The position numbers and the translations under genes are program-made. Below, one piece after another: positions 1 through 11,921 of a stretch of DNA of 11,921 nucleotides. This DNA comes from a virus (Duplodnaviria > Heunggongvirae > Uroviricota > Caudoviricetes). The notes under the pieces were generated by a model. The model was not told where the DNA came from. It worked only from the letters and a program-made list of their open reading frames with translations, and did no database searches. Numbering within the stretch: position 1 is the first letter of the stretch; every line of letters begins with the position of its first letter. The stretch is taken from IMG/VR virus record IMGVR_UViG_2606217106_000005, positions 1 to 11,921 of that record; one strand, 5' to 3'.

Positions 1-60
1 CCTTCTTATTCATAAGGCGGGACACTTTCAGGATTTTGAATTTATTCAATTTTTTCCTTT

Positions 61-92
61 CTCCAAAATCTCTCCAAAACTTTTCCCCAAAA
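61..92. repeat. Three phased direct repeats CTCCAAAA (61-68), CTCCAAAA (72-79), CCCCAAAA (85-92) just beyond the int stop; candidate integrase arm-type sites
   Basis: Read directly; spacing 11 and 13 bp. In lambda attL the P' arm with three arm-type Int sites lies next to the int 3' end; the assignment here is by analogy only. Confidence 0.3.
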
Positions 93-156
93 CCAGGGCA
101 CGCATTTTACAACACTTTTTTCCTGAAATGGTGACGGATATTCCATATGATGTTTG

Positions 157-1275
157 TTAAATAACCAACTTAACCCATTCCTGACCTCGGGTATCGTTAT
201 AGCGATCGGTGGTAGCCTGGACTTTATGTCCCAGTAATGTTTTTGTATCGACACCCTGTGCGCGGTACAACCGTTCTGACAGGGAGCGTTGTTCATGAAA
301 TGTTGGCGGTGTTTTTCCTGCTGGTGGAATTATTCCAGCCAGATCTCGCGCTTTGGCGAAGTAATCGCTCAGGTTGTCTTTACTCATCGGTTTTGGTTGT
401 TTCTGGTGCCTACTATGGATTAGATATGGACTTAATATTCTGTCTCGGCACCCATCAATAACTTCTTTTAACGTTATCCCAATGGCATCACAGCGTAGTG
501 TAAGCGGTAACGCCAGGCGCATTCCGGTTTTTCCCTGGGTGATATGCAAGTGTTCGTTCCACACATCTGAAAAACGCATGTGGCAAATGTCATCACGGCG
601 CTGACCAGTAACAATCGCAAGAAGCATTGCGTTACGGATAAAGTGTTTTTCAGGCGTTGCGTTGTAAATTTTTTGCCAGTCTTCCAGGGTGAGTCTGGCT
701 CTGGTTACTTTAGGGATCGGTTTACGGGTAGCCTCCGGAGGATTCCATCCAGGAGGAACTTCTCCTGCATGCTGTGCTTCTTTATAAATATCAACCCATA
801 ATCCACGATTTACTCTCGCTGTGCTGACCATGTCTTTATCCAGCCAATCATCCAGTATTAATGCAAAGTCTCTTACTTCCAGTTCTTTCAATGGATGGTT
901 TCCCAGACGGGAAACCAGGTATGCAGCCATTCGGGCTTTTTCTTTGTGAGTTGTAGCTGCAATATCTCCATTTTTCAGTCGCGTGTCCTGTATTTTCAGA
1001 TATCGATCAACCCATGCCTTTAATCTGATACCCCGACGTTTTGTTGCTGACGGACTTTCATCAATTTTGCGCATGAAATATTCAGCTTCTGCTGCAGCTA
1101 TTCGCTGATTGGCTGTGGAAGCGATTTTTTCTGCCTTACCTTTGTCTGTTCCGAGTCCGTGAAATTTTCCAGTCACAGGATTTTTATACTGGTAGTAAAC
1201 TCTGCCAGTTCTGCGATCAAACTTTTCGTAAAGACCGGCTACGTCAGTGCTGTTTTTTCGTGGCCTCGGTGACAT
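157..1275 (-). CDS. int: Phage tyrosine integrase, lambda Int family
   Basis: 372-aa ORF. C-terminal motifs PPTFHEQRSLSERLY and LLGHKVQATTDRYNDTRGQEW align with the lambda Int catalytic HxxR box and the nucleophile Tyr region (DPPTFHELRSLSARLY / LLGHKSDTMASQYRDDRGREW). Start overlaps the 3' end of the xis-like gene, as in lambda. Confidence 0.93.
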   Translation of the reverse strand: MSPRPRKNSTDVAGLYEKFDRRTGRVYYQYKNPVTGKFHGLGTDKGKAEKIASTANQRIAAAEAEYFMRKIDESPSATKRRGIRLKAWVDRYLKIQDTRLKNGDIAATTHKEKARMAAYLVSRLGNHPLKELEVRDFALILDDWLDKDMVSTARVNRGLWVDIYKEAQHAGEVPPGWNPPEATRKPIPKVTRARLTLEDWQKIYNATPEKHFIRNAMLLAIVTGQRRDDICHMRFSDVWNEHLHITQGKTGMRLALPLTLRCDAIGITLKEVIDGCRDRILSPYLIHSRHQKQPKPMSKDNLSDYFAKARDLAGIIPPAGKTPPTFHEQRSLSERLYRAQGVDTKTLLGHKVQATTDRYNDTRGQEWVKLVI

Positions 1276-1522
1276 GAGTTAAAATCTCCTTCAGTGCATC
1301 ATCATCGCCAGTATGAATTTCCGGCGCAATTCCCGTTTCACCAGGCCCAACAAATACTGCTCGGCGATCTATCAGCCAACGCCCACGAATTTTTTGTGGC
1401 CTTGGAACGATGTATCCTAGTTTTCCGTATTTCACCAGGGTAGTGTTTGTTATTGGGAGACTGAACCGTTTTGGTTTCCACTCGTCGAGCGTTATCAGGT
1501 ACTGTTCGCTCATGGCTATCAC
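1244..1522 (-). CDS. xis: Excisionase, lambda Xis-like
   Basis: 92-aa ORF directly upstream of int and overlapping it by 32 bp. Motif YLITLDEW...GRWLI resembles lambda Xis YLTLQEW...REYLF. True start may be the internal Met (MSEQYL, codon at 1511-1513). Confidence 0.75.
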   Translation of the reverse strand: MIAMSEQYLITLDEWKPKRFSLPITNTTLVKYGKLGYIVPRPQKIRGRWLIDRRAVFVGPGETGIAPEIHTGDDDALKEILTHVTEATKKQH

Positions 1523-1574
1523 TCCGGAACGCGCCAGTTGCAGAATATCAACGACAACTGGCGACGGTTGAACA

Positions 1575-4046
1575 TTAAAAATCAGCCTGACTCGGGATCA
1601 GTTTTTGCCAGATAACTGAAACGTATTTTGCCTGGTAACGGGCGTCATCAAGTGCATTATGGCGCTCACCTTCGAATGGAATAGCCGTTCTGGCATCGAA
1701 GTCTATGGCTTTCCCCAGCTCAACGATTGTGCGTACATCGCGATCGTTGTAGTAACGCCACGGGCAGGGGATCCCCTGCCGTTCGTATGAACGGCGCAAA
1801 ATCGTGTTGTCGAAGTTGGCTCCATTTCCCCAGACCTGAACAAAAAATTCACCGGAGTTTTCGTCGATAAATTCCCGCAATTGTAACAGTGCATCATCTA
1901 ACGGGATTTCATCGGTCATAATGGCAGATTGCGCTTCGCGTGATTGCTTAAGCCACCATTTAATGGTGTCCCGATCAATGACTCCGCCAGCAGTTTCCAG
2001 ATCGATAGTCTTACTAAATTCCGGTCCCATATCTCCGGTTTGCGGATCGAAAAATATTGCACCTATTGAGATGATCGGGGCATCAGGATTTTTTCCCATG
2101 GTTTCAAGGTCGATCATTAGATGGTCACACGTCCTGCTGGTGGATGTGATTTCTTGATGACCGTTCACCTTAATTGAGTGATCTGCCGTCTCGCCAGTTT
2201 CATTATCGCTATCGTGATGCTGATTGCCGCCAGTGTTCTCTTTGTGTGGATGTTCAGCGCCTTCCATTTCCTCCGGATCATCTTCCTGAACTTCAACCTG
2301 ATACTCTTCATCGAATGTTTCCTGGTATGTTGCGTCGCCCATCACCGCGCCACAATCAGGGCAGTTGCCGCCGCCGGTCTGACCGCAGGCGGTGCAGATC
2401 TTTTCCGGTTCCTGTTGCACTACTGGTTCAGGTTGTTTCGTTTCTGGCTCGTTTTGTTGCGTACTTGGGCTGTTTTGTTCCGCTTTCTGGTCGTTCTGTT
2501 CCGTTTCTTGCTGGTTCTGGTTCACAGAATCGCGGGTCTGGATCCCATTAACCCATTTCGGATCATTCGGGTCGCTAATCCCTTCAACAAATTCACCACG
2601 TGATACTGCAAGCAGTTCATCGGCGTCAGGCTGGCTGATATTGGCTGCCTGCATAATTTTGTTTACTTCGTCAGCGGTAACTTTTACTGACCCTGGTTGT
2701 GCGGTCGTGTCAGATGCACCAGTATTTTGTTGTGAACCTGAGTATGTACCGTTTTTGCGGGCGAAATATTCTTCTTTCGTGATTTCAGTAGCCCCAGCAG
2801 ACAGCGCCTTATCCAGACCAGAAAGTTTGTTTGCGCGACCGTATTTTTCGCCATCCTTGTCGGTGAAGAGGAAGTAGAACGGCCCCTCACGTTCTACAGA
2901 TGGTTCGACTTCCACTTTGCATTCGGTTTTTTCGTTGTCTGGAATTGCCGTTTCCACTGCATCAGTTTCTGGTACTGGCGACGAGAGAGTATCAGTTGCG
3001 CTCTGATTTGTTCCTTCATCTTCAAACACGCCCTTTGTAGTCAGGTATTCAGTAATGTATTTGTTCAGTGCCACAGGGTCTTTGTGAATGTCGATCGGAC
3101 GTTCACGGACAAGGCCAAAAATAGTCTGGCGGTCGTAGCGAAGGGCATCAGGCTGTTTGCGCATTGATGCCGAGATACGCTTCCAGTCTTCGCGGTCGTT
3201 GTCGATAACTTCATTTTTTGCCCAGCGATGGATGCTGCCGTCAATGTTTCCGGCATCCACATCACCAGGCCAGAGAGCGTAGGCCAGTTCGTCATCCAGT
3301 GTTTTCCATGTCTGCTTGTATTCGCGATGAATGGCAGCAATGACCGGGCTGATTTTTCCTGTTGAATTTTCAGTGTGCTGTTGATTGGTTCTGGCGCGGG
3401 CGAGATCAACAACAGACGTGTATTTTCCGGTTTCCTTGCGTTCACCTTCGCGACGTTTTTTCCAGATGCGCATCTCTGCCTGAATTTCGGGCCATTTGGC
3501 ACCAGGCTTACATTTATGCTTAACGCACCCGATGGCATGCAGCTTAAGCTCCGGATACATGGCGTTAACTTCTGGCATTTTCATCAACGCTTCAACGATA
3601 TGTCCGTCGAATGTTGCCATGTCTTCCTGCAACAATTCCTGTGCGTTAATAACCATATCAACGGTGATGTTTTCACATGTGTCGAACTTAACCATGAGAG
3701 CGTTCTGTACTTCAGGGGCCAGCTTGTCAAAAGTGACGTTCATCAGATCGGATTCAGTCTCAACCGGGACAAAAGAAGCAGAATCCTCATCCCAGCGGTT
3801 TTCCTGCATATATTCAGCATCCCATGAATCGAGGGCAGGGCGGGGTATGCCAGGTTTATCCTCGCAGATAATAAATTTATAAGCGCAGTCCTGAGCAGCC
3901 GGATAATGTTCCAGGAACTGCCAGTGAAATTTTGCTCGAGCACGGCGTTCGTCGCCAGCTTCAATGGCTGTGGCTACAGCCACAGCGCCTTCTTCCCTTG
4001 TTGCCAGTTCGTCAGGAATGGCGGCGCAAATAAAGACTTTACTCAT
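1575..4046 (-). CDS. Large phage exonuclease with C-terminal DEDDh (DnaQ-like) 3'-5' exonuclease domain, Cys4 zinc ribbon and acidic low-complexity linker
   Basis: 823-aa ORF with GAGG SD. C-terminal motifs MIDLETMG (Exo I, D-x-E), GNGANFDNTIL (Exo II), HNALDDARYQ (Exo III, H...D) are visible. CTACGQTGGGNCPDCG is a C-x2-C-x8-C-x2-C ribbon. Sits where lambdoid phages carry exo/recombination genes; I recall similar proteins annotated exodeoxyribonuclease VIII-like, but cannot verify. Confidence 0.8.
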   Translation of the reverse strand: MSKVFICAAIPDELATREEGAVAVATAIEAGDERRARAKFHWQFLEHYPAAQDCAYKFIICEDKPGIPRPALDSWDAEYMQENRWDEDSASFVPVETESDLMNVTFDKLAPEVQNALMVKFDTCENITVDMVINAQELLQEDMATFDGHIVEALMKMPEVNAMYPELKLHAIGCVKHKCKPGAKWPEIQAEMRIWKKRREGERKETGKYTSVVDLARARTNQQHTENSTGKISPVIAAIHREYKQTWKTLDDELAYALWPGDVDAGNIDGSIHRWAKNEVIDNDREDWKRISASMRKQPDALRYDRQTIFGLVRERPIDIHKDPVALNKYITEYLTTKGVFEDEGTNQSATDTLSSPVPETDAVETAIPDNEKTECKVEVEPSVEREGPFYFLFTDKDGEKYGRANKLSGLDKALSAGATEITKEEYFARKNGTYSGSQQNTGASDTTAQPGSVKVTADEVNKIMQAANISQPDADELLAVSRGEFVEGISDPNDPKWVNGIQTRDSVNQNQQETEQNDQKAEQNSPSTQQNEPETKQPEPVVQQEPEKICTACGQTGGGNCPDCGAVMGDATYQETFDEEYQVEVQEDDPEEMEGAEHPHKENTGGNQHHDSDNETGETADHSIKVNGHQEITSTSRTCDHLMIDLETMGKNPDAPIISIGAIFFDPQTGDMGPEFSKTIDLETAGGVIDRDTIKWWLKQSREAQSAIMTDEIPLDDALLQLREFIDENSGEFFVQVWGNGANFDNTILRRSYERQGIPCPWRYYNDRDVRTIVELGKAIDFDARTAIPFEGERHNALDDARYQAKYVSVIWQKLIPSQADF

Positions 4047-4139
4047 TTTGTTTTAACCTCATGACAGATTTAAGGATGAACAAATCCCTGCCATTGCTGG
4101 CATATAAGAATGAAACCGGATATTTATTACGGAACTGTT

Positions 4140-4331
4140 TTAAAGACCTGCCGGGATTTCGATATTATCCTGGTGAATAACTTTATCGACCGGGTAACAG
4201 TTACCGGGAATTTTCTGTTCGGTTGCTGCAGTCATACACTCCTGCATTGTCCTGTGAACACTGACTGCAATATCAACTGGCTCTCCGGAAACAAGAAAAA
4301 CTGTCAGAACAAGTGCAAATGCTGTATTCAT
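4140..4331 (-). CDS. Small hypothetical protein (63 aa) with hydrophobic signal/TM-like N-terminus
   Basis: Start ATG overlaps the stop of the upstream small ORF (ATGA, translational coupling). N-terminus MNTAFALVLTVFLVSG is hydrophobic. Located in the early-left region where lambda has kil/cIII-type small genes. Confidence 0.5.
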   Translation of the reverse strand: MNTAFALVLTVFLVSGEPVDIAVSVHRTMQECMTAATEQKIPGNCYPVDKVIHQDNIEIPAGL

Positions 4332-4516
4332 TGCCAGCATCCTTTTTGTATCGGACGTAAACGGGCCAACATTGAAAGAATGCATATTTTATTTAATAGC
4401 TCCCGTTCGTGTTTTCTCTTGTTAATGGCATCTTCAGTAAATACAGGGTTACTGATAGTGACACCAATTTCAAAACAACCTTCAGACGTATTAACGTTTG
4501 GTAATAACGTTTTCAT
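4328..4516 (-). CDS. Small hypothetical protein (62 aa)
   Basis: Internal Met chosen over the 97-aa ORF-track start because it is preceded by GAGGG 7 nt upstream; stop overlaps the next gene start. Confidence 0.45.
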   Translation of the reverse strand: MKTLLPNVNTSEGCFEIGVTISNPVFTEDAINKRKHERELLNKICILSMLARLRPIQKGCWQ

Positions 4517-5005
4517 TATCGCGCCCTCAACAATGAGTTTTGTGATGCGGTGCCTGGTGCCTCCAGGTGACGTTAACCAGTTAACAATTAACGCCGGATA
4601 CAGAGAATCCAACCATAACACTGTTTTTGGTTTTAACTGTTCCGCGTGCGCTTAGCCGCATTCACCGCATCACAAAATTCACTTTAAAAAGGGCGGCAGA
4701 GCAGTCACGGAGTAAAACTGATACCGCCAAACGTCACCAGAAAATTGATAACAGAGGGCGTTGCAGCGGGGTTGTCACTTAAGCGTATGGTCAACCTGAC
4801 AACCCGGTGTCCTCAACGGGGGAAGGAATACCCCCGCCATACTTACCGCCGCGCCATTTCGCGGATTGCCACAACCAGAAGCGCACGGTCGAAGAAATTT
4901 AACGACAAGACTTATATGCAAAGGGATCTCGCCGTGCGCTTTCGTGTTATGCCCTGACTTTTCAGGGTAAATTAACCTGTGGAAACCTGTTTTTACTGGC
5001 GCTAA

Positions 5006-5245
5006 TCAGTTAGCGTTTCTGGCTAACCAGCGATGCGCGGCAGCTTCGGTTTTAAACGTTTTACTTTTGGTATACGTCATCGCGGTAAACGTGCCGTCCT
5101 GATTGGGAAACACGCCACATACCAGAGATTCGTTGTTGCCAAGCTCGATAGTATCCATGCTGACCTCATTTCCCCTTAACGCTGGGGTAGCGGAACTAAA
5201 AACCTGCTGCGCTGTTATACAAAGTGTTCCCGCCGTCATGTTCAT
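5006..5245 (-). CDS. Hypothetical first gene of the early-left operon (79 aa)
   Basis: First ORF downstream of the predicted leftward promoter; GAGG upstream of the MNM start cluster; no family recognised. Confidence 0.5.
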   Translation of the reverse strand: MNMTAGTLCITAQQVFSSATPALRGNEVSMDTIELGNNESLVCGVFPNQDGTFTAMTYTKSKTFKTEAAAHRWLARNAN

Positions 5246-5339
5246 ACGCCTCGGGCTGGCTACTTAATCCCTGACCACTGCCGGGTAACTCTAGGTATTG
5301 CCCTGTATTGTGTGGGACGGGATGGGTTGGTATGGGAAA

Positions 5340-5408
5340 ACTATAGGAAATGCCTAATTGCTTGTCAATAGGCTATGCCTAATGATTTGGGTGCGACCTA
5401 ATAGGTGA
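5340..5408 (-). promoter_or_regulatory. P_L-like early-left promoter with three operator sites (O_L)
   Basis: Minus-strand TTGACA (plus coords 5363-5368), 17-bp spacer, TATAGT (plus coords 5340-5345). Operator-like sites TAGG-N5-CCTA (5343-5355), TAGGC-tat-GCCTA (5369-5381) and CCTAATAGG (5397-5405), centres about 26 bp apart. Confidence 0.6.
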
Positions 5409-5476
5409 TGGTTTGTGGGAGAGGTAGTAGGAGTTAACTAACGGGAACTAGGAATTTCCCGTCGGACCATATAAGT

Positions 5477-5953
5477 TTAAGTTCCTGTCTTGGTGATGTT
5501 CTGGCTTTTCCGTTTTGATTCTTGATTTTTCAGATAGTTAGCTACCTTCATTTCCATTGCGGCAATGTAGGCGCGAACGTCATGATCAACCCAACTAGGC
5601 TCCGTAGCATTTCCAGATAAGAGGAAAGCCACAATTGCTCTTTTTTCATCAGAGGCGGCTTGATAAAGGCTGTTTATGTCTAAAAGTTCACTTTTTGTAT
5701 CTGAAGTGGATGGGGTTGGTATGGGGTATTCGTTAAGCCCCCAATGCTCTGGACCAACCACATCAGAAAAGAAACGCCATAGTTCTGGAAGTTTGTCTTT
5801 ACTTATCGAACCTTTCTTAATCCAGTCATGGATTGATGGTGGTTGGACTTTGAAATGACGTGCGATTTCCGCCTTTGATTTGACGGCTCCTGATGCAATT
5901 TTTTTGTTGATGGCCTGCTCTATCGCTCGGCCTAAGTCTTTACCACTAAGCAT
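5477..5953 (-). CDS. racR: Prophage repressor, RacR-like HTH protein
   Basis: 158-aa ORF between outward-facing promoters. HTH-like segment SKAEIARHFKVQPPSIHDWIKKGS. Length and N-terminus match my recollection of E. coli Rac prophage RacR; followed divergently by ydaS/ydaT-like genes, as in Rac. Confidence 0.8.
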   Translation of the reverse strand: MLSGKDLGRAIEQAINKKIASGAVKSKAEIARHFKVQPPSIHDWIKKGSISKDKLPELWRFFSDVVGPEHWGLNEYPIPTPSTSDTKSELLDINSLYQAASDEKRAIVAFLLSGNATEPSWVDHDVRAYIAAMEMKVANYLKNQESKRKSQNITKTGT

Positions 5954-5981
5954 TGCTTAATAGTCTCCTATGCGCATCGCG

Positions 5982-6050
5982 TTAGGCAATCCCTACTCTC
6001 GAAGCGTTAGGCATAGCCTATTGACAATCGCATTAGGCTAAGCCTAATAT
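5982..6050 (+). promoter_or_regulatory. P_R-like early-right promoter with three operator sites (O_R), including a perfect 17-bp palindrome
   Basis: TTGACA at 6021-6026, 18-bp spacer, TAATAT at 6045-6050. Perfect palindrome ATTAGGCTAAGCCTAAT at 6032-6048 overlaps spacer and -10; TTAGGC-ata-GCCTA at 6007-6020; TTAGGC half-site at 5982-5987. Confidence 0.65.
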
Positions 6051-6077
6051 TATTGTGTGTTTTTTGGAGTTCATTCG

Positions 6078-6401
6078 ATGAAAAAAGATAACTATTCATT
6101 CAAACGAGCTTGTGCTGTTGTCGGTGGGCAATCAGCAATGGCTAGGCTTTTAGGTGTATCTCCTCCAAGCGTAAATCAATGGATCAAAGGTGTACGTCAG
6201 TTGCCTGCTGAGAGATGTCCTGCGATTGAACGAGCAACAAAAGGTGGTGTCCTGTGTGAAGAACTTCGTCCTGATGTTGATTGGACATACTTACGACGCT
6301 CGTCATGTTATTCGCAGAATATGTCGATGAAGCAACCAAATGACGAAAACGATCATACCCGAAGCATCAAGAGGCAAATGATTCATGAAAATCAAACATG
6401 A
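6078..6401 (+). CDS. ydaS: Cro-like HTH protein, YdaS-like
   Basis: ATG at 6078 preceded by GGAG (6066-6069). Motif GGQSAMARLLGVSPPSVNQWIKGVRQLPAERCPAIERAT is typical of YdaS/Cro-like proteins. First gene after P_R. Confidence 0.8.
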   Translation: MKKDNYSFKRACAVVGGQSAMARLLGVSPPSVNQWIKGVRQLPAERCPAIERATKGGVLCEELRPDVDWTYLRRSSCYSQNMSMKQPNDENDHTRSIKRQMIHENQT

Positions 6402-6810
6402 GCACATCCGCATGGCGATGAATGCCTGGGCATATCCTGATGGTGAGAAAGTTCCAGCAGCTGGAATAACCCAGGCTTATTTTGAGTTGGGTATGACGTT
6501 CCCAGAACTGTATGACGACAGCCATCCGGAAGCCCTGGCTCGCAATACCCAGAAAATTTTCCGCTGGGTAGAGAAAGACACCCCTGATGCAGTTGAAAAA
6601 ATTCAGGCGTTGTTACCAGCGATCGAAAAGGCAATGCCACCTTTGCTGGTGGCCAGAATGCGCAGCCACAGTTCAGCTTATTTTCGGGAGCTGGTGGAGA
6701 CGCGGGAACGACTGGTGAGAGACGCTGATGATTTTGTCGCAGTGGCGATCGCTGGTTTCAACCAGATGAATCGTGGTGGCCCTGCAGGAAATATTGTGGC
6801 TGTGCATTGA
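6385..6810 (+). CDS. ydaT: YdaT-like protein, putative toxic partner of YdaS
   Basis: 141-aa ORF overlapping the ydaS stop by 17 bp; GAGG SD; same position and size as Rac prophage ydaT. Confidence 0.7.
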   Translation: MKIKHEHIRMAMNAWAYPDGEKVPAAGITQAYFELGMTFPELYDDSHPEALARNTQKIFRWVEKDTPDAVEKIQALLPAIEKAMPPLLVARMRSHSSAYFRELVETRERLVRDADDFVAVAIAGFNQMNRGGPAGNIVAVH

Positions 6811-6881
6811 CTCGCAATATTCATACCGGATCACTTCCGGCAATTTGTGAGTAAAAAGATTCGGTATCAAAAGAGGTGAGT

Positions 6882-7952
6882 ATGGCTAACGCCTGGCTCA
6901 GATTATGGCATGACATGCCAAATGACCCTAAGTGGCGAACAATTGCCAGGGTGTCAGGGCAGCCAATTGCAACAGTGATGGCAGTGTATATCCACCTCCT
7001 GGTGAGCGCGTCACGAAATGTCACGCGAGGTCACATTGATGTCACGACAGAAGATTTGGCAAGTGCGCTCGACGTGACAGAAGAGGTAATTGATTCAATT
7101 TTGCAGACGATGCAGGGGCGGGTACTTGATGGTGATTTAATCACTGGATGGGAAAAACGCCAGGTGCTTAAAGAGGACAACGGCAATATTTCGCAAACCG
7201 CAAAATCTCCTGCAGAGCGCAAGAGGGCGCAGCGAGAGAGGGAAAGAAAGCGGGAACAAAATGGCGATTGTCACGGCGCGTCACGAAATGTCACGCACAT
7301 GTCACGACGAGTCACGACAGATAAAGATACAGATAAAGATACAGATCAAGAAGATCAAAACACTATGGTCCATGGCGTAAAAAACGCCACGAACCAGGCA
7401 GGGGATGTTCAGACCGTCAATCTTGGTCAGCCAGCAGGCACGACACCGGAAGCCGATTCAGCGTATGCGCTGAAAGCCGATTCGGGCGCTGTGCAGCAGG
7501 TGATGACCGCAAGGCCGGAGCAATCACACCAACTGCAGCAGCCCGAAGCCGATTCCGCCATTCAGCGGGAAGCCGATCGGGTAGTCCCGGAAAACACCGG
7601 GCAGTCTGTGGGACGAGTGGATTATCCGGATGTGTTCGAACAGGTCTGGCGGGAGTACCCGTTGCGTGCTGGGGCAAACCCGAAGAAATCCGCTTTCAGT
7701 GCCTGGAAGGCCAGATTACGCGAGGGGGTGCCACCAGAGGCCATGCTGGATGGCGTGAGGCGTTACGCAAGATACTTGGCGGCTACCGGGAAAACGGGAA
7801 CGGAATTTGTTCAGCGAGCGACGACGTTTTTTGGACCGGACCGGAATTTTGAAAACCCCTGGTTGCTCCCGGTAAGCGGCACGAACAACCAGCGTTGTGT
7901 TAATCATATTTCTGAACCGGACACCGAAATTCCGCCGGGATTCAGAGGGTAA
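6882..7952 (+). CDS. Phage replication initiation protein (replisome organizer, O-like) containing the putative origin
   Basis: ATG at 6882 with GAGG SD. N-terminus AWLRLWHDMPNDPKWRTIARVSGQPIATVMAVYIHLL resembles phage replisome-organizer N-domains. C-terminal FEQVWREYPLRAGANPKKSAFSAWKAR...WLLP resembles the conserved C-domain of phage replication proteins. Iteron clusters lie inside the gene. Confidence 0.75.
   Translation: MANAWLRLWHDMPNDPKWRTIARVSGQPIATVMAVYIHLLVSASRNVTRGHIDVTTEDLASALDVTEEVIDSILQTMQGRVLDGDLITGWEKRQVLKEDNGNISQTAKSPAERKRAQRERERKREQNGDCHGASRNVTHMSRRVTTDKDTDKDTDQEDQNTMVHGVKNATNQAGDVQTVNLGQPAGTTPEADSAYALKADSGAVQQVMTARPEQSHQLQQPEADSAIQREADRVVPENTGQSVGRVDYPDVFEQVWREYPLRAGANPKKSAFSAWKARLREGVPPEAMLDGVRRYARYLAATGKTGTEFVQRATTFFGPDRNFENPWLLPVSGTNNQRCVNHISEPDTEIPPGFRG
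7006..7050 (+). repeat. Iteron cluster 1: four TCAC(G) repeats at one-helical-turn spacing
   Basis: TCACG at 7011, 7021, 7042 and TCACA at 7031; inverted copy CGTGAC at 7073-7078; a 21-bp block GCGCGTCACGAAATGTCACGC is repeated exactly at 7276-7296. Confidence 0.6.
7271..7342 (+). repeat. Iteron cluster 2 (five TCACG repeats) followed by a 12-bp tandem duplication AGATAAAGATAC x2
   Basis: TCACG at 7271, 7281, 7291, 7302, 7312 (spacing 10-11 bp); tandem 12-mers at 7319-7330 and 7331-7342, then degenerate AGATCAAG copies; A/T-rich flank consistent with a DNA-unwinding element. Confidence 0.6.
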
Positions 7953-7989
7953 CAGATTTCAGGTCATGGGGTAATTTTCAGGAGGGCTT

Positions 7990-8412
7990 GTGGCAAAAGT
8001 TTTTACACAAGAAGAGCGGGAAAAAATTAAAGGGCAGGTTGTTGAACTCGTACGCCAGAGTGGGCGCGAGACGTTACGACAACTGGAAACTAAAACTGGG
8101 GCAACAAGATATCTGATGAGCGTTCTGGCCAGAGAGCTGGTTGCCAGTGGCGATGTATACAATTCTGGCTACGGGTTATTCCCGTCTGAACAGGCTCGTA
8201 AAGACTGGCAAAATGCCCGCAAAAAACTCTCAAGGGCAAAGCTGAAGAAACCATCTGCGGTTGATCCGGACCTTATCTGGTCATTACCAGATGGCGAAAT
8301 ACGCCGCTACGACAGGCGTCTGAACATAATCTGTCTCGAGTGCCGGAAGAGCGAAGTTATGCAGCGCGTACTGGCGTTTTATCAGGGGAATTTTGAGGAG
8401 GTGGTGCGGTGA
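7990..8412 (+). CDS. Hypothetical protein (140 aa), first gene of a translationally coupled trio
   Basis: GTG start with GGAGGG SD (7981-7986); stop overlaps the next start (GTGA). Confidence 0.55.
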   Translation: MAKVFTQEEREKIKGQVVELVRQSGRETLRQLETKTGATRYLMSVLARELVASGDVYNSGYGLFPSEQARKDWQNARKKLSRAKLKKPSAVDPDLIWSLPDGEIRRYDRRLNIICLECRKSEVMQRVLAFYQGNFEEVVR

Positions 8413-8663
8413 GTGAATCAAAATGCCAGGTTAATGGCAACAAGATAGAACCATGTGCAGCACTGGCAAAGTCCCTTGAGCATGATGCTGAATACACGAT
8501 GCGAAAAGGTCTGCTGATATACAAAATCTGGAATGAGAGTTTAACTCGCGGTCCTGATTTTGTGATGTTGCGTTCCGGTGAATTTTCTAAATTACCAGTT
8601 CGGGTTTCATTTTGTCCGTTCTGTGGTGAAAGTCTGAAAACGTGGGAGAACAGAAATGAATGA
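8409..8663 (+). CDS. Hypothetical small Cys4 protein (84 aa), possible zinc ribbon
   Basis: GTG start after GAGGAGG; cysteines in CQVNGNKIEPC and CPFCGES suggest a metal-binding ribbon; overlaps both neighbours. Confidence 0.5.
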   Translation: MSESKCQVNGNKIEPCAALAKSLEHDAEYTMRKGLLIYKIWNESLTRGPDFVMLRSGEFSKLPVRVSFCPFCGESLKTWENRNE

Positions 8664-8967
8664 AATTAAAGAAATACCAGTAGTACGTGATGAATATGGC
8701 TGCTGGACGCATCCTGAATATGAAAAATTCTGTGACGGTCGGGAATATATTTCAACGGAAGAGTTTAACGCCTGGATGGAGGAAAATAATCTTCAATACG
8801 TCCTCTGCTTCAGAGATGAAGGATGTGCTGACCTTGATGCGTGTGATGCTGATATTTCTGCATGGGAACCGGAACGACCAGAGGGCAATGGATGGTTTAT
8901 TGGTTCAATACATGACACCGAAGATGGCCCGGTTTGTGTATGGCTGAGAAATAAGGCCGAAGCATAA
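8656..8967 (+). CDS. Hypothetical acidic Cys-rich protein (103 aa)
   Basis: ATG overlapping the upstream stop (ATGAATGA); GGGAGA SD; six cysteines; no family recognised. Confidence 0.55.
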   Translation: MNEIKEIPVVRDEYGCWTHPEYEKFCDGREYISTEEFNAWMEENNLQYVLCFRDEGCADLDACDADISAWEPERPEGNGWFIGSIHDTEDGPVCVWLRNKAEA

Positions 8968-9272
8968 AGGCTATAAACCGACTAACAACTAAATACTGAA
9001 GATTTAAATCAGAAACGATTTTTATTAAATCCTTAACCGGAGGGATTCTGCACCCTCAGAACATCAGGAGGCCGTCTGAAAGGGCGGAACAGATAATGCT
9101 TACGTTGAAACATTTTATCGACATACCAACATGGTTAGCCGTCATTGCTTTTGTTAAAATACACATCCACTTTTCTGTGCAATGTTTAACCACTGGTCAT
9201 ATCAAATGGCATTCATGCGAACCATGATATAGAATCATGGCTTGAGAGAGTCGATGAAAGCGCAACTATGGT

Positions 9273-9851
9273 ATGAGAGACATTGATGTAAGAAAGGCTG
9301 TGCATGCCAAGATTCTGAGAGATCATCATAAAGATCCTGACACCCTAATCATTGATGAGTTTACGATGAATCTAGGGGCTAGCAGAGCTGATATAGCAGT
9401 GATCAATGGGCTTATACATGGTTATGAGTTGAAGAGCAAGAGTGATAACTTGCTCAGATTACCAGCGCAGGTGCAACATTACTCATCAGTGATGGATAAA
9501 GTAACTTTGGTTGTCTCTGATTGCCATCTTTATGATGCTTTAAGCATAGTTCCATCATGGTGGGGGATAAAGCAAGTTACGCAAGGTGCACGGCAAGGTA
9601 TCCATTTAAAAACAATTCGAACTAGCAAGTTGAATCCACAAGTGGACAAACTTTCCTTAACAATGCTTCTTTGGAAAGATGAATTGCTTTCCCTATTAAG
9701 TGATGTAGGGGAGCTACAGAATTTGAAAAATAAACCTAAACGCGTCTTATGGTCAAAACTCGCCAATAGTATGGATGTTGGCGAGCTTCGTGAAGCTGTT
9801 CGAGTTAAACTTAAAGCCCGTAAAGAGTGGCGAGTTGCTCAACAACCTTAG
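9273..9851 (+). CDS. PD-(D/E)XK-type nuclease-fold protein (192 aa), sce7726-like by recollection
   Basis: Motif arrangement IIDEF (E29) ... RADIAVING (D40) ... GYELKSK (E52-x-K54) matches the restriction-endonuclease-like core. Putative extended -10 (TGaTATAGA, 9225-9233) upstream. Confidence 0.7.
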   Translation: MRDIDVRKAVHAKILRDHHKDPDTLIIDEFTMNLGASRADIAVINGLIHGYELKSKSDNLLRLPAQVQHYSSVMDKVTLVVSDCHLYDALSIVPSWWGIKQVTQGARQGIHLKTIRTSKLNPQVDKLSLTMLLWKDELLSLLSDVGELQNLKNKPKRVLWSKLANSMDVGELREAVRVKLKARKEWRVAQQP

Positions 9852-10908
9852 TTATGTGATGGTTTTGCCCAATCCTACGCCATACCTCTGGGCTACCAAA
9901 TTTATAGTTACCAGAGGGATTGGCTTTGTAGGCTTGATACTCGTTTGCATAATATTCTATGTCTCTATCTCCCGCACAGAATGTAGGCCCTGAATATTCT
10001 CGATGAGCAAGAATATCCTCACTATGTTTACCATATTGTTCATAACCAAAGCGATTAGCTACTCTTCCTCGAAATACCCAAAAGTCATTATCTCCAGAGT
10101 ATCTGACGCTGGCAGATACGCTAGGGAATCGCGTCGAAAGCCTATTAAAGTCGGGGTGCTGTACTCCATAATCACTATAAATCACATTTCTGGCAAGTTC
10201 TTTTCTATTCATTAAACTCTGCCATAAAATCCACTCGATTCGAGGTTGAGAATATAGACCAACAGAAATATCACTGAGATCTGTAGGAAATGAACCCCCA
10301 GAAAGAATCACTTTTCTGTATTCATTGAGGTGCGCCAGATTGTTTATCAATCCCATTGCCAAAGTATATAGTTCGCCGGAATTAATTTTATCCTCGGTTA
10401 ACTCATCTCTTAAGTCAATAATTATATCAATATTTGATAAAGGAATTCCCAGATGATTAATGTAATGCGTTATTAATTGTGGGTTAACCAGATCTAACGT
10501 GGTTAATCTCAAGCATATTTCATTCTGCATTAATTCATCAATCGCTCTTTTATAGTTAGATGGGCGAGTTGGTGAACTGACAGGAATAACTCTTATCCCC
10601 ATATCTCTAACTTGATTAACCGCATTTATTATAGGGTAATGATCTTCAGGAGAAATAAAATGCTCTTCAATTAATAATCCATCAATATAAACACCTTGCA
10701 TATCTGAGCAAGATTTTGAGACTTTCTTTCCGAACTCTATAAGAGTCTCGTTATAACTCTTTAAGGCAATACCTGAATCAGGGTCAATTGGCACTGGTTC
10801 AATTTCGAGTAATGGCAAAATTTTTGATTTCTTTTCAATGGATAGCTGCGATAAAGCTGATAACTCAGAACGTTTCGCTTTCAGAATAGGAATATATGAA
10901 ATTGTCAT
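9811..10908 (-). CDS. Beta-protein / sce7725-like family protein (365 aa), function unknown
   Basis: Long ORF with AAGG SD 8 nt upstream of ATG. N-terminal MTISYIPILKAKRSELSAL matches my memory of the conserved start of this family. No Walker or other catalytic motifs recognised. 3' end overlaps the convergent 192-aa gene by 41 bp. Confidence 0.7.
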   Translation of the reverse strand: MTISYIPILKAKRSELSALSQLSIEKKSKILPLLEIEPVPIDPDSGIALKSYNETLIEFGKKVSKSCSDMQGVYIDGLLIEEHFISPEDHYPIINAVNQVRDMGIRVIPVSSPTRPSNYKRAIDELMQNEICLRLTTLDLVNPQLITHYINHLGIPLSNIDIIIDLRDELTEDKINSGELYTLAMGLINNLAHLNEYRKVILSGGSFPTDLSDISVGLYSQPRIEWILWQSLMNRKELARNVIYSDYGVQHPDFNRLSTRFPSVSASVRYSGDNDFWVFRGRVANRFGYEQYGKHSEDILAHREYSGPTFCAGDRDIEYYANEYQAYKANPSGNYKFGSPEVWRRIGQNHHITKVVEQLATLYGL

Positions 10909-11339
10909 GTTAATACCTTATACAGAATCAATTAACAATTAATGGTTCTTCGGACATTGAAATTTATATCGCAAAAATTGGCAAACTCTCCTCGACTACT
11001 CACTTGTGGGTATCCTGGCGTAAAAGGAATGACTTGGCAATACCCGGTGTGATCATAAGTCATTGAAAATGATCATTTTTATCAGTCTTTCTTCCATGAT
11101 GAATGCTAATGCCATTTGATTTGTTGAGGTGAAAACTGTTAAAAATCAAAACGATGTAATTGAAATGAACGTTCGGTAGCATTCACGCTTTAAATGTTTC
11201 TTTTGTGCTGATTGGATGAATTTGGGTCACTTCTGATGAGAGATGTTGCAGGAAAAGAAGTTGGCATTGATCTATTGGATAGTTAGAATTACTGCGGGTG
11301 CTTGAGGCTATCTGCCTCAGGCATGAACACCAAAAGGCA

Positions 11340-11420
11340 GATAGAGAAAAGCCCCAGTTAACATTACGCGTCCGGCAAGACGCTTAACATTAATCTGAGG
11401 CCAATTTCATGCTTTGCACA
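11340..11420 (-). ncRNA. Candidate Sok-like antisense RNA of the hok locus (approximate)
   Basis: Inferred only from the canonical hok/sok organisation (antisense RNA opposite the hok mRNA leader/mok start); no clear promoter or terminator could be pinned down by eye. Confidence 0.25.
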
Positions 11421-11465
11421 TGTAGGTTAGCCTCTTACGTGCCGAAAGGCAAGGAGAAGCAGGCT

Positions 11466-11621
11466 ATGAAGCAGCAAAAGGCGATGTTAATCGCCCTGAT
11501 CGTCATCTGTTTAACCGTCATAGTGACGGCACTGGTAACGAGGAAAGACCTCTGCGAGGTACGAATCCGAACCGGCCAGACGGAGGTCGCTGTCTTCACA
11601 GCTTACGAACCTGAGGAGTAA
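11466..11621 (+). CDS. hokD: Hok-family type I toxin (HokD/RelF-like), 51 aa
   Basis: Translation MKQQKAMLIALIVICLTVIVTALVTRKDLCEVRIRTGQTEVAVFTAYEPEE has the Hok signature (single TM helix, LTRK..LCE.R) and matches my recollection of E. coli RelF/HokD. GGAG SD; in-frame upstream ATG at 11409 gives a 70-aa mok-like extension. A 9-bp inverted repeat (11308-11316 / 11336-11344) lies in the leader. Confidence 0.85.
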   Translation: MKQQKAMLIALIVICLTVIVTALVTRKDLCEVRIRTGQTEVAVFTAYEPEE

Positions 11622-11921
11622 GAGACCAGGCGGGGGAGAATCCCATAAGCGCTAACTTAAGGGTTGAACCATCTGAAGAATGCGACGCCTCGGTGCCTCG
11701 TTAAGACGATGCCTCGCGTTCTTCAATTGCGTTTTGTAGGCTGTCAGGGATACTGTCCCACGAATGGCCACCTGTAAGCTCCAGATGACCATTTTTGTTA
11801 TTCTCCACAACGAGTTAGTTCTTCTTTTCGGATCCGGCACTTCTGGGGGGGGAATCCAGCGATGGCTGGATTATGTCGTCAATTAAAAATGCGGCGAGTA
11901 GATTAGCAAATATCCACGCTT

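Follow-up and report, generated by a model that had tools for sequence, protein, structure and literature searches.

A predicted mirror-image promoter-operator switch around racR in a lambdoid prophage with Rac-type immunity

The DNA analysed here, referred to as the window, is a stretch of 11,921 nt from a tailed phage of the Caudoviricetes (IMG/VR record IMGVR_UViG_2606217106_000005, positions 1 to 11,921). It contains the immunity region of a lambdoid prophage organised around the repressor gene racR. This region is likely to be an immunity switch in which one promoter-operator module occurs twice, mirrored around racR, with RacR shutting both early promoters. The repressor gene is flanked by two outward-reading consensus promoters, a predicted one on the left (5368 to 5340, minus strand) and one on the right (6021 to 6050, plus strand), and their -10 and -35 hexamers are overlapped by tandem operators that share a consensus (L1/L2 on the left, R1/R2 on the right). 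What appears to be new is the left module, or cassette, in RacR-type immunity: the right cassette is known from the Rac prophage carried by Escherichia coli K-12, where it holds operators O1-O3 and promoter PydaST, and the architecture is textbook lambdoid. No description of the left cassette was found in the literature searched on RacR, Rac and prophage CP-933P, and an earlier one may exist.

Two mirrored modules and their operators

The 21-nt sequence TTGTCAATAGGCTATGCCTAA at positions 5362-5382 is the exact reverse complement of positions 6007-6027, as an earlier reading made from the sequence alone (the sequence-only reading) had reported. A repeat finder extends the inverted pair to 26-nt arms, 92% complementary and 614 nt apart. 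By our own arithmetic about 1.6e-5 exact inverted repeats of 21 nt are expected per 11.9 kb, so that the mirror repeat is not due to chance. A consensus promoter scan of positions 5000-6400 returned two sites only, each on one copy of the repeat. The left promoter (11/12 match) reads on the minus strand from TTGACA (5368 to 5363) through a 17-nt spacer to TATAGT (5345 to 5340), and the right promoter (10/12 match) has on the plus strand a TTGACA, an 18-nt spacer and a TAATAT (Table 1). The scan bears out the earlier claim that each repeat copy holds a TTGACA reading away from the repressor gene.

The RacR operator consensus, (T/A)TAGGC-N3-GCCTA(T/A), was derived from DNase I footprints in K-12 (PMC9638921). 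Searched for with at most two mismatches, WTAGGC-N3-GCCTAW occurs five times in the window against 1.04 expected, a count reached in 0 of 200 shuffles, and all five matches lie within the two cassettes (5343-57, 5368-82, 5982-96, 6007-21 and 6033-47). Scanning with a weight matrix derived from 68 different sites in related loci recovers the same five with scores of 14-23 bits, the top score in shuffled sequences averaging 8.5 bits. Both modules have the same build when read outward from racR: a first operator, site A, ends in GCCTAT, its last T begins the TTGACA, and after 5-6 bp follows a second operator, site B, whose last bases begin the -10.

The encoded repressor is 92% identical to K-12 RacR over 158 residues and belongs to the NCBIfam equivalog NF049929, in agreement with its earlier description as RacR-like. 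It matches no Pfam family at E <= 0.01, hence no Peptidase_S24 domain. For the right cassette the K-12 literature provides a direct experimental counterpart. Operator O1 is situated inside the ydaST promoter and needs the lowest RacR concentration for protection, and O3 covers the racR ATG (PMC9638921). PydaST is made of TTGACA, 18 nt and TAATAT, with a mapped start site (PMC11879457), and is repressed by RacR in vitro and in vivo (PMC9638921, PMC5700373, PMC11879457). The site found at 5946-60 in the window has the same sequence as the published O3, also called the C-protein box (PMC9638921).

These features lead to a simple mechanism. RacR dimers bound to the 15-bp palindromes would occlude the -35 and -10 elements: one dimer, on site A, would sit over the -35 and another, on site B, would occupy the spacer and mask the -10, so that both early promoters would be shut in the lysogen. 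The right module (R1/R2, R3 and the site over the ATG) would act as rightward promoter and operator (PR/OR) for ydaS, ydaT and the replication genes, and would autoregulate racR. The left module (L1/L2) would act as leftward promoter and operator (PL/OL), its transcript comprising a 175-nt leader, the DUF1391 gene, DicF, dicB, ydfD, an exonuclease gene, xis and int. RacR binding and promoter activity at the left module, as well as cooperativity between sites, are what we infer for this region.

Table 1. Coordinates of the racR immunity region and of the neighbouring genes in the window
Feature	Position	Strand	Remarks
Leftward early operon, predicted target of the left promoter	4140..5158	-	Pfam, NCBIfam DicB, Rfam, annotation of a related genome
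ydfD	4140-4331	-	Pfam / annotation
dicB	4328-4516	-	NCBIfam DicB
DicF small RNA	4691-4742	-	Rfam, 76.7 bits
DUF1391 gene	5006-5158	-	Pfam
Leader of the predicted leftward transcript, ~175 nt	5159..5335	-	C-rich, unstructured
-10 TATAGT, leftward PL-like promoter (predicted)	5340..5345	-	11/12 match; overlaps outer end of operator L1
Operator L1 ATAGGAAATGCCTAA	5343..5357		1 mismatch; 18.6 bits; between left -35 and -10; mirror counterpart of R1
-35 TTGACA, leftward promoter (predicted)	5363..5368	-	Shares one base with operator L2
Operator L2 ATAGGCTATGCCTAA	5368..5382		0 mismatches; 22.1 bits; exact reverse complement of R2; identical in K-12 Rac
Putative weak third left operator L3 TTGGGTGCGACCTAA	5387..5401		3 mismatches; 5.3 bits, within chance range; doubtful
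16-mer ACCTAATAGGTGATGG	5396..5411		Invariant in 7/7 Escherichia-group sequences while flanks vary
Hairpin after racR stop (ACGGGAA…UUCCCGU, U/A-rich tail)	5441..5462	-	8-bp stem; 15 nt past stop codon
racR, 158-aa repressor gene between the cassettes	5477..5953	-	NCBIfam NF049929, 246.8 bits (cut-off 200)
Weak operator over racR start codon CTAAGCATTGCTTAA = O3 of K-12	5946..5960		5.5 bits, within chance range
Operator R3 TTAGGCAATCCCTAC	5982..5996		2 mismatches; 14.1 bits
Operator R2 TTAGGCATAGCCTAT	6007..6021		0 mismatches; 22.1 bits; abuts right -35
-35 TTGACA, rightward promoter (PydaST / PR-like)	6021..6026	+	Identical to mapped K-12 PydaST -35 (PMC9638921, PMC11879457)
Operator R1 TTAGGCTAAGCCTAA = O1 of K-12	6033..6047		0 mismatches; 23.1 bits, best in window; perfect palindrome between -35 and -10
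-10 TAATAT, rightward promoter	6045..6050	+	Hexamer and 18-bp spacing as in K-12 PydaST
ydaS-like cro analogue, first gene of rightward operon	6078..6401	+	Pfam YdaS_toxin 4.6e-30, P22_Cro 1.2e-8
ydaT (cII analogue)	6385..6810	+	Pfam YdaT_toxin

The two sides differ in their number of sites. The right cassette has three operators, spaced 26 and 25 bp centre to centre, in addition to the site over the ATG, while the left cassette has two, spaced 25 bp, and a degenerate third one found in the Escherichia group only. The earlier claim of three operator-like sites about 26 bp apart in each cassette thus holds on the right and fails on the left, where two canonical sites are present. Nothing resembling an operator is found 25-26 bp beyond L2; the best candidate, L3, lies only 19 bp from it and scores at chance level. 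L3 has two mismatches in E. ruysiae and in phage 683R6 and is absent outside the Escherichia group. The conserved 16-mer ACCTAATAGGTGATGG contains two half-site-like elements back to back (CCTAA followed directly by TAGG), and may contribute to a weak OL3 or be bound by some other protein. L1 reads ATAGGTAATGCCTAA in K-12, and its left half-site is TAGGA or TAGGT in the Escherichia group.

Two further elements around R1 were discarded. The outer arms of a 33-nt extended palindrome centred on this operator are not conserved in K-12 and the palindrome is probably a coincidence, and a terminator-like match at 6032-6048 is just R1 read as a hairpin.

Conservation of the cassettes

The Rac prophage of K-12 has both cassettes, with the same left cassette upstream of ydaG, an outcome of the comparison with Rac immunity regions that had been proposed as a check of the lambda-like organisation. 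In seven Escherichia-group sequences the operator half-sites and promoter hexamers are invariant at 31 of 32 columns on the left, compared to 94 of 145 other non-coding columns (Fisher p = 7e-5), and at 43 of 44 columns on the right, compared to 53 of 80 (Fisher p = 1.4e-5), p-values that are generous because the sequences are related. The substitutions in this group are found in the N3 centres of the operators and in the spacers between sites. The left -10, TATAGT, is unchanged in all seven sequences.

A more divergent set comprises 12 distinct RacR loci from species-representative genomes and phages, with repressors of 58-92% amino acid identity; it includes Mixta, Proteus, Klebsiella phage KpF5, Achromobacter and metagenome-assembled genomes. 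Nine of the 12 loci have a two-site promoter module downstream of racR, situated 87-130 nt past its stop codon, or 764-1435 nt where extra genes intervene, in flanks that cannot be aligned. TTGAC(A/T) is fused to site A in all nine, and TA(A/T)TAT or TATAGT is found in other RacR loci at the place of the left -10. Outside Escherichia, six of the seven loci with a downstream pair show two promoter-overlapping sites per cassette plus one at the racR ATG, and a site over this ATG with at most two mismatches is present in eight of the non-Escherichia loci. The divergent loci are stronger evidence for the left copy than the column tests in the Escherichia group.

Viral contigs were scanned with site A joined to TTGAC as query, which gave at least 120 loci. 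Among the matches listed, 81 of 120 have one cassette per strand in divergent orientation, and every one of these 81 has a RacR-like open reading frame (ORF) between the cassettes (30-100% identity); they represent 69 distinct inner sequences. The gap between the cassettes in the 81 listed loci is 599-628 bp in 71 cases and 908-2589 bp in the other 10. Many of the listed loci with a single cassette are KpF5-like, and the right -35 of KpF5, TTGATT, is below the threshold of the scan.

This distribution bears on the idea that the left copy has no function and was left behind as a relic by a duplication or by recombination between immunity regions, its match to the right copy reflecting recent copying. 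Such an origin could be suggested by the exact 21-nt identity in the window and by the position of the left cassette at a mosaic junction (see below). The two copies in K-12 differ in the N3 centre (ATA and ACA) while the half-sites are kept, the pair is still found in hosts as remote as Achromobacter and Proteus, where the N3 centres differ and the flanks are unrelated, and the half-sites and hexamers are more conserved than the adjacent non-coding DNA. A relic is therefore very improbable.

Some loci of the divergent set are instructive in themselves. Achromobacter codes for proteins of 362-366 residues (L011 2501-3601 and L013 2501-3589) in which only the first ~77 residues are RacR-like (77-78% identity), and these loci keep the same operators and both mirrored cassettes. 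It seems that different carboxyl-terminal domains accompany the RacR DNA-binding domain and its operators. The locus of Klebsiella sp. R390 (L010, 2430-2510) has lost the right -35, which reads TTTTAT, and has no downstream cassette within 2.4 kb; its immunity region, perhaps decayed, contrasts with the intact one in the window.

The left cassette as a probable repressed early promoter

The left cassette is most likely a RacR-repressed PL, predicted to drive the DUF1391-DicF-dicB-ydfD operon; genes for a 3'-5' exonuclease, xis and int follow ydfD further left on the minus strand. DicF-dicB-ydfD is the cell-division-inhibitor operon of the Qin type, found here under immunity of the RacR type and not of the DicA type. 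The 50-aa DUF1391 gene has a GAGG ribosome-binding site before its ATG at 5158, and the 79-aa ORF that extends it (5245-5006) is probably spurious. A 181-aa ORF antisense to dicB (4110-4655, plus strand) matches no family in Pfam or NCBIfam.

The position of the cassette is informative. More than 1000 additional E. coli genomes without racR contain the leader and the DUF1391 gene at 84-93% identity; of two such loci inspected, one has a LexA-family repressor and the other PaaR2-RelB-ParE, the CP-933P type. In alignments the homology between the window and other immunity types ends exactly at the left -10, and the left cassette therefore forms the left border of an immunity module that can be exchanged, placed at the same mosaic junction as the PL of other immunity types. 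The leader shows no structured antitermination RNA: its fold is weaker than that of shuffled sequences (z = +1.9) and it has no Rfam match. Its C-rich, low-structure RNA would suit a Rho-loading site.

Expression data published for K-12 point to a promoter at this place. When C protein lowers RacR, racR mRNA falls and ydaF, ydaG, ydaE and racC rise ~40-fold, kilR rising more than 70-fold in the same condition (PMC6765115). When dCas9 is directed to racR, ydaG, kilR, recET, xisR and intR rise along with ydaST, which itself increases more than 100-fold (bioRxiv 2026.09.06.749655). Read-through cannot account for a rise of downstream co-directional genes at a time when transcription of racR drops, and a promoter of their own, repressed by RacR and located between racR and ydaG, is required. 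These data on the orthologous system make the left cassette the obvious candidate for it. Literature searches for RacR chromatin immunoprecipitation or SELEX (systematic evolution of ligands by exponential enrichment) data gave nothing relevant, and a search for KilS gave nothing.

Several observations weigh against a RacR switch with two repressed promoters. The left cassette is known from sequence, in this element and in K-12 alike. Promoter-like matches in 5000-6400 are not enriched over shuffled sequences (2 against 2.4 expected); it is the position of the matches and not their number that carries weight. In no case does the left half-site of L1 carry the consensus C at position six, the Fisher tests take alignment columns of related sequences as independent, and three of the 12 divergent loci have no downstream pair within 2.3-2.5 kb. 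Finally, one model published for K-12 does without a PL: read-through transcription that starts at the racR promoter is stopped by a Rho-dependent terminator inside racR, which silences kilR (PMC4150792).

This model, together with the lack of enrichment and the fact that the left promoter is predicted, gives some room to an alternative in which the left cassette consists of auxiliary operators only, serving as a looping anchor or as a roadblock at the end of racR. The cassette would then lack a real promoter, and the leftward genes would depend on transcripts from the racR promoters that read through. The register between the operators and the -35 and -10 is nevertheless maintained among loci with unalignable flanks, and the homologous position holds a proven promoter in CP-933P and Qin. 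In addition, the leftward genes go up 40- to more than 100-fold when racR transcription drops or is blocked, the opposite of what read-through predicts. An operator-only cassette is consequently unlikely, and the lambda-like organisation advanced by the sequence-only reading is supported by the identity of RacR, the operator match, the match to PydaST, the conserved left module and the position of PL.

It is conceivable that both cassettes are real and act chiefly at long range. RacR tetramers on L1/L2 and R1/R2 would join as an octamer, looping ~640 bp that include racR, and the loop would tighten repression and tune the autoregulation of racR, a role that CI has over 2.3 kb in lambda. In size exclusion, K-12 RacR is recovered as an octamer (PMC11014345), the 2+2(+1) layout of sites outside Escherichia matches the octamer logic of lambda, and the gap between cassettes clusters at 599-628 bp in 71 of the 81 listed viral loci. 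The authors who described the octamer credit instead the four sites located between racR and ydaS (PMC11014345), the clustering may just mirror the size of racR, and the gap widens to 0.9-2.6 kb where extra genes intervene. Looping is compatible with the two-promoter switch, as an extension of it, and is a real possibility that falls short of an even chance.

A tentative proposal combines these elements: the left cassette would be the missing half of the RacR switch, and a bridge between two dimers on L1/L2 and two on R1/R2 would couple repression of the DicF/DicB arm, or of KilR/RecET in K-12, to that of ydaST and to racR autoregulation. If this bridge exists, the published model of the RacR regulon and the read-through/Rho model of kilR silencing would both need revision.

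If the left cassette is a RacR-repressed PL, the switch would be direct, its targets in K-12 including KilR, RecET, xisR and intR, and the 40- to 100-fold rise of leftward genes on lowering RacR would be explained. It would also provide a defined target for mutation in work on how Rac excises, on zygotic induction and, in pathogenic strains, on phenotypes that depend on DicF. RacR-type immunity regions are present in about one fifth of complete E. coli genomes (1086 of 5426 hold the 851-nt region described below, and racR is annotated in 1086 or more), including O157:H7, O103, O111 and K-12. The general picture of lambdoid switches is unchanged by the left cassette.

Prophage context and relation to known switches

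The rightward genes follow the pattern of K-12 Rac. The start of the ydaS-like gene follows the annotation of its closest relative. Overlapping the first codon of ydaT is the YdaT box (6378-6395), whose sequence ATGATTCATGAAAATCAA does not differ from the one that YdaT protects in K-12 footprints (PMC11879457). The racR, ydaS-like and ydaT ORFs are intact, consistent with the earlier proposal of a complete and not decayed immunity region; 'complete' is judged from the window and is claimed for the immunity region only.

An 851-nt region that has 99.9% identity to prophages of strains such as E. coli O103 and O111 is ~86% identical to its counterpart in K-12 Rac. The left-arm content of K-12 Rac (ydaG-ydaF-sieB-kilR-racC-recET) is not found in the window. 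Its left arm is instead made of DUF1391-DicF-dicB-ydfD and the 3'-5' exonuclease, which makes the element a mosaic, a lambdoid E. coli prophage whose immunity is of the Rac type, and not Rac itself. In the closest genome, E. coli O103 RM8385 (2300000-2347500), the element spans from int to a Q-type antiterminator and tRNAs. The Rv2179c-like 3'-5' exonuclease is an intact ORF of 823 aa in the window (1575-4046) and is frameshifted in RM8385. The RacR-type element adjoins in this strain a second lambdoid prophage that has PaaR2-RelB-ParE immunity and its own leader, DUF1391 and dicB arm.

Other features lie close to the cassettes. The hairpin that follows racR might act as a weak terminator, insulating the left promoter from racR transcription: its stem is kept, with changes, in K-12, and the fold z-score of the 91-nt segment that includes it is not significant. 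An exact 13-nt direct repeat, GGGTTGGTATGGG, is found at 5324-5336, just downstream of the left -10, and at 5713-5725 inside racR, in codons of a Pro/Thr-rich linker; it may be a chance repeat. The sok antisense RNA of a hok/sok toxin-antitoxin locus is located at the right end of the window (11296-11471, plus strand; Rfam, 119.8 bits).

The closest known relative of the switch is that of K-12 Rac. Its O1-O3/PydaST region is orthologous to the right cassette. The two agree in promoter, sites, spacing and the weak operator on the racR ATG, and differ in the N3 centres and inter-site spacers (e.g. TAA versus GTC in O1). The left arms also differ, the window having a dicBF-type arm with a 3'-5' exonuclease instead of kilR, sieB and recET. 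The K-12 literature (PMC9638921, PMC5700373, PMC11879457) covers the intergenic region only.

The arrangement shares with the lambda OL/PL-OR/PR system a repressor gene located between outward early promoters, tandem palindromic operators spaced ~2.4 helical turns apart, and divergent cro and cII analogues. The K-12 RacR orthologue has further lambda-like traits, a leaderless repressor transcript (PMC9638921) and an octameric state in solution (PMC11014345). RacR works like CI but stands outside the LexA/CI (Peptidase S24) family, and only the helix-turn-helix fold is common to both: it lacks Peptidase_S24 and its carboxyl-terminal domain has an unrelated fold (PMC11014345). Self-cleavage stimulated by RecA is not expected for these two reasons, and the RacR switch is probably induced without it. 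The operators in the window are 15 bp long, have another consensus and include two good sites on the left, and the OL-OR distance is ~0.64 kb as compared to 2.3 kb in lambda. K-12 YdaS is also reported not to repress racR (PMC9638921), unlike the situation in lambda.

Two lambdoid prophages have a characterised promoter at the position of the left cassette. In CP-933P, PL933P with OL1-3 is similarly placed downstream of the repressor operon and upstream of the same leader and DUF1391 gene; this PL has the same -35 and -10 as PR and is repressed by PaaR2 and YdaS in reporter fusions (PMC8630535). The repressor PaaR2 is unrelated to RacR, the operator consensus consists of GTTTAGTAA repeats, and a toxin-antitoxin pair separates the repressor gene from PL. 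In Qin, the PL analogue dicBp drives an operon whose content resembles that of the window, from ydfA (DUF1391) to dicF, dicB and ydfD; this ydfABC-dicF-dicB-ydfD operon is transcribed from the DicA-repressed dicBp (PMC10448788). It differs from the window in its control by DicA through DicA operators, in the greater length of the operon and in induction of dicBp by the antirepressor Rem or by bistability.

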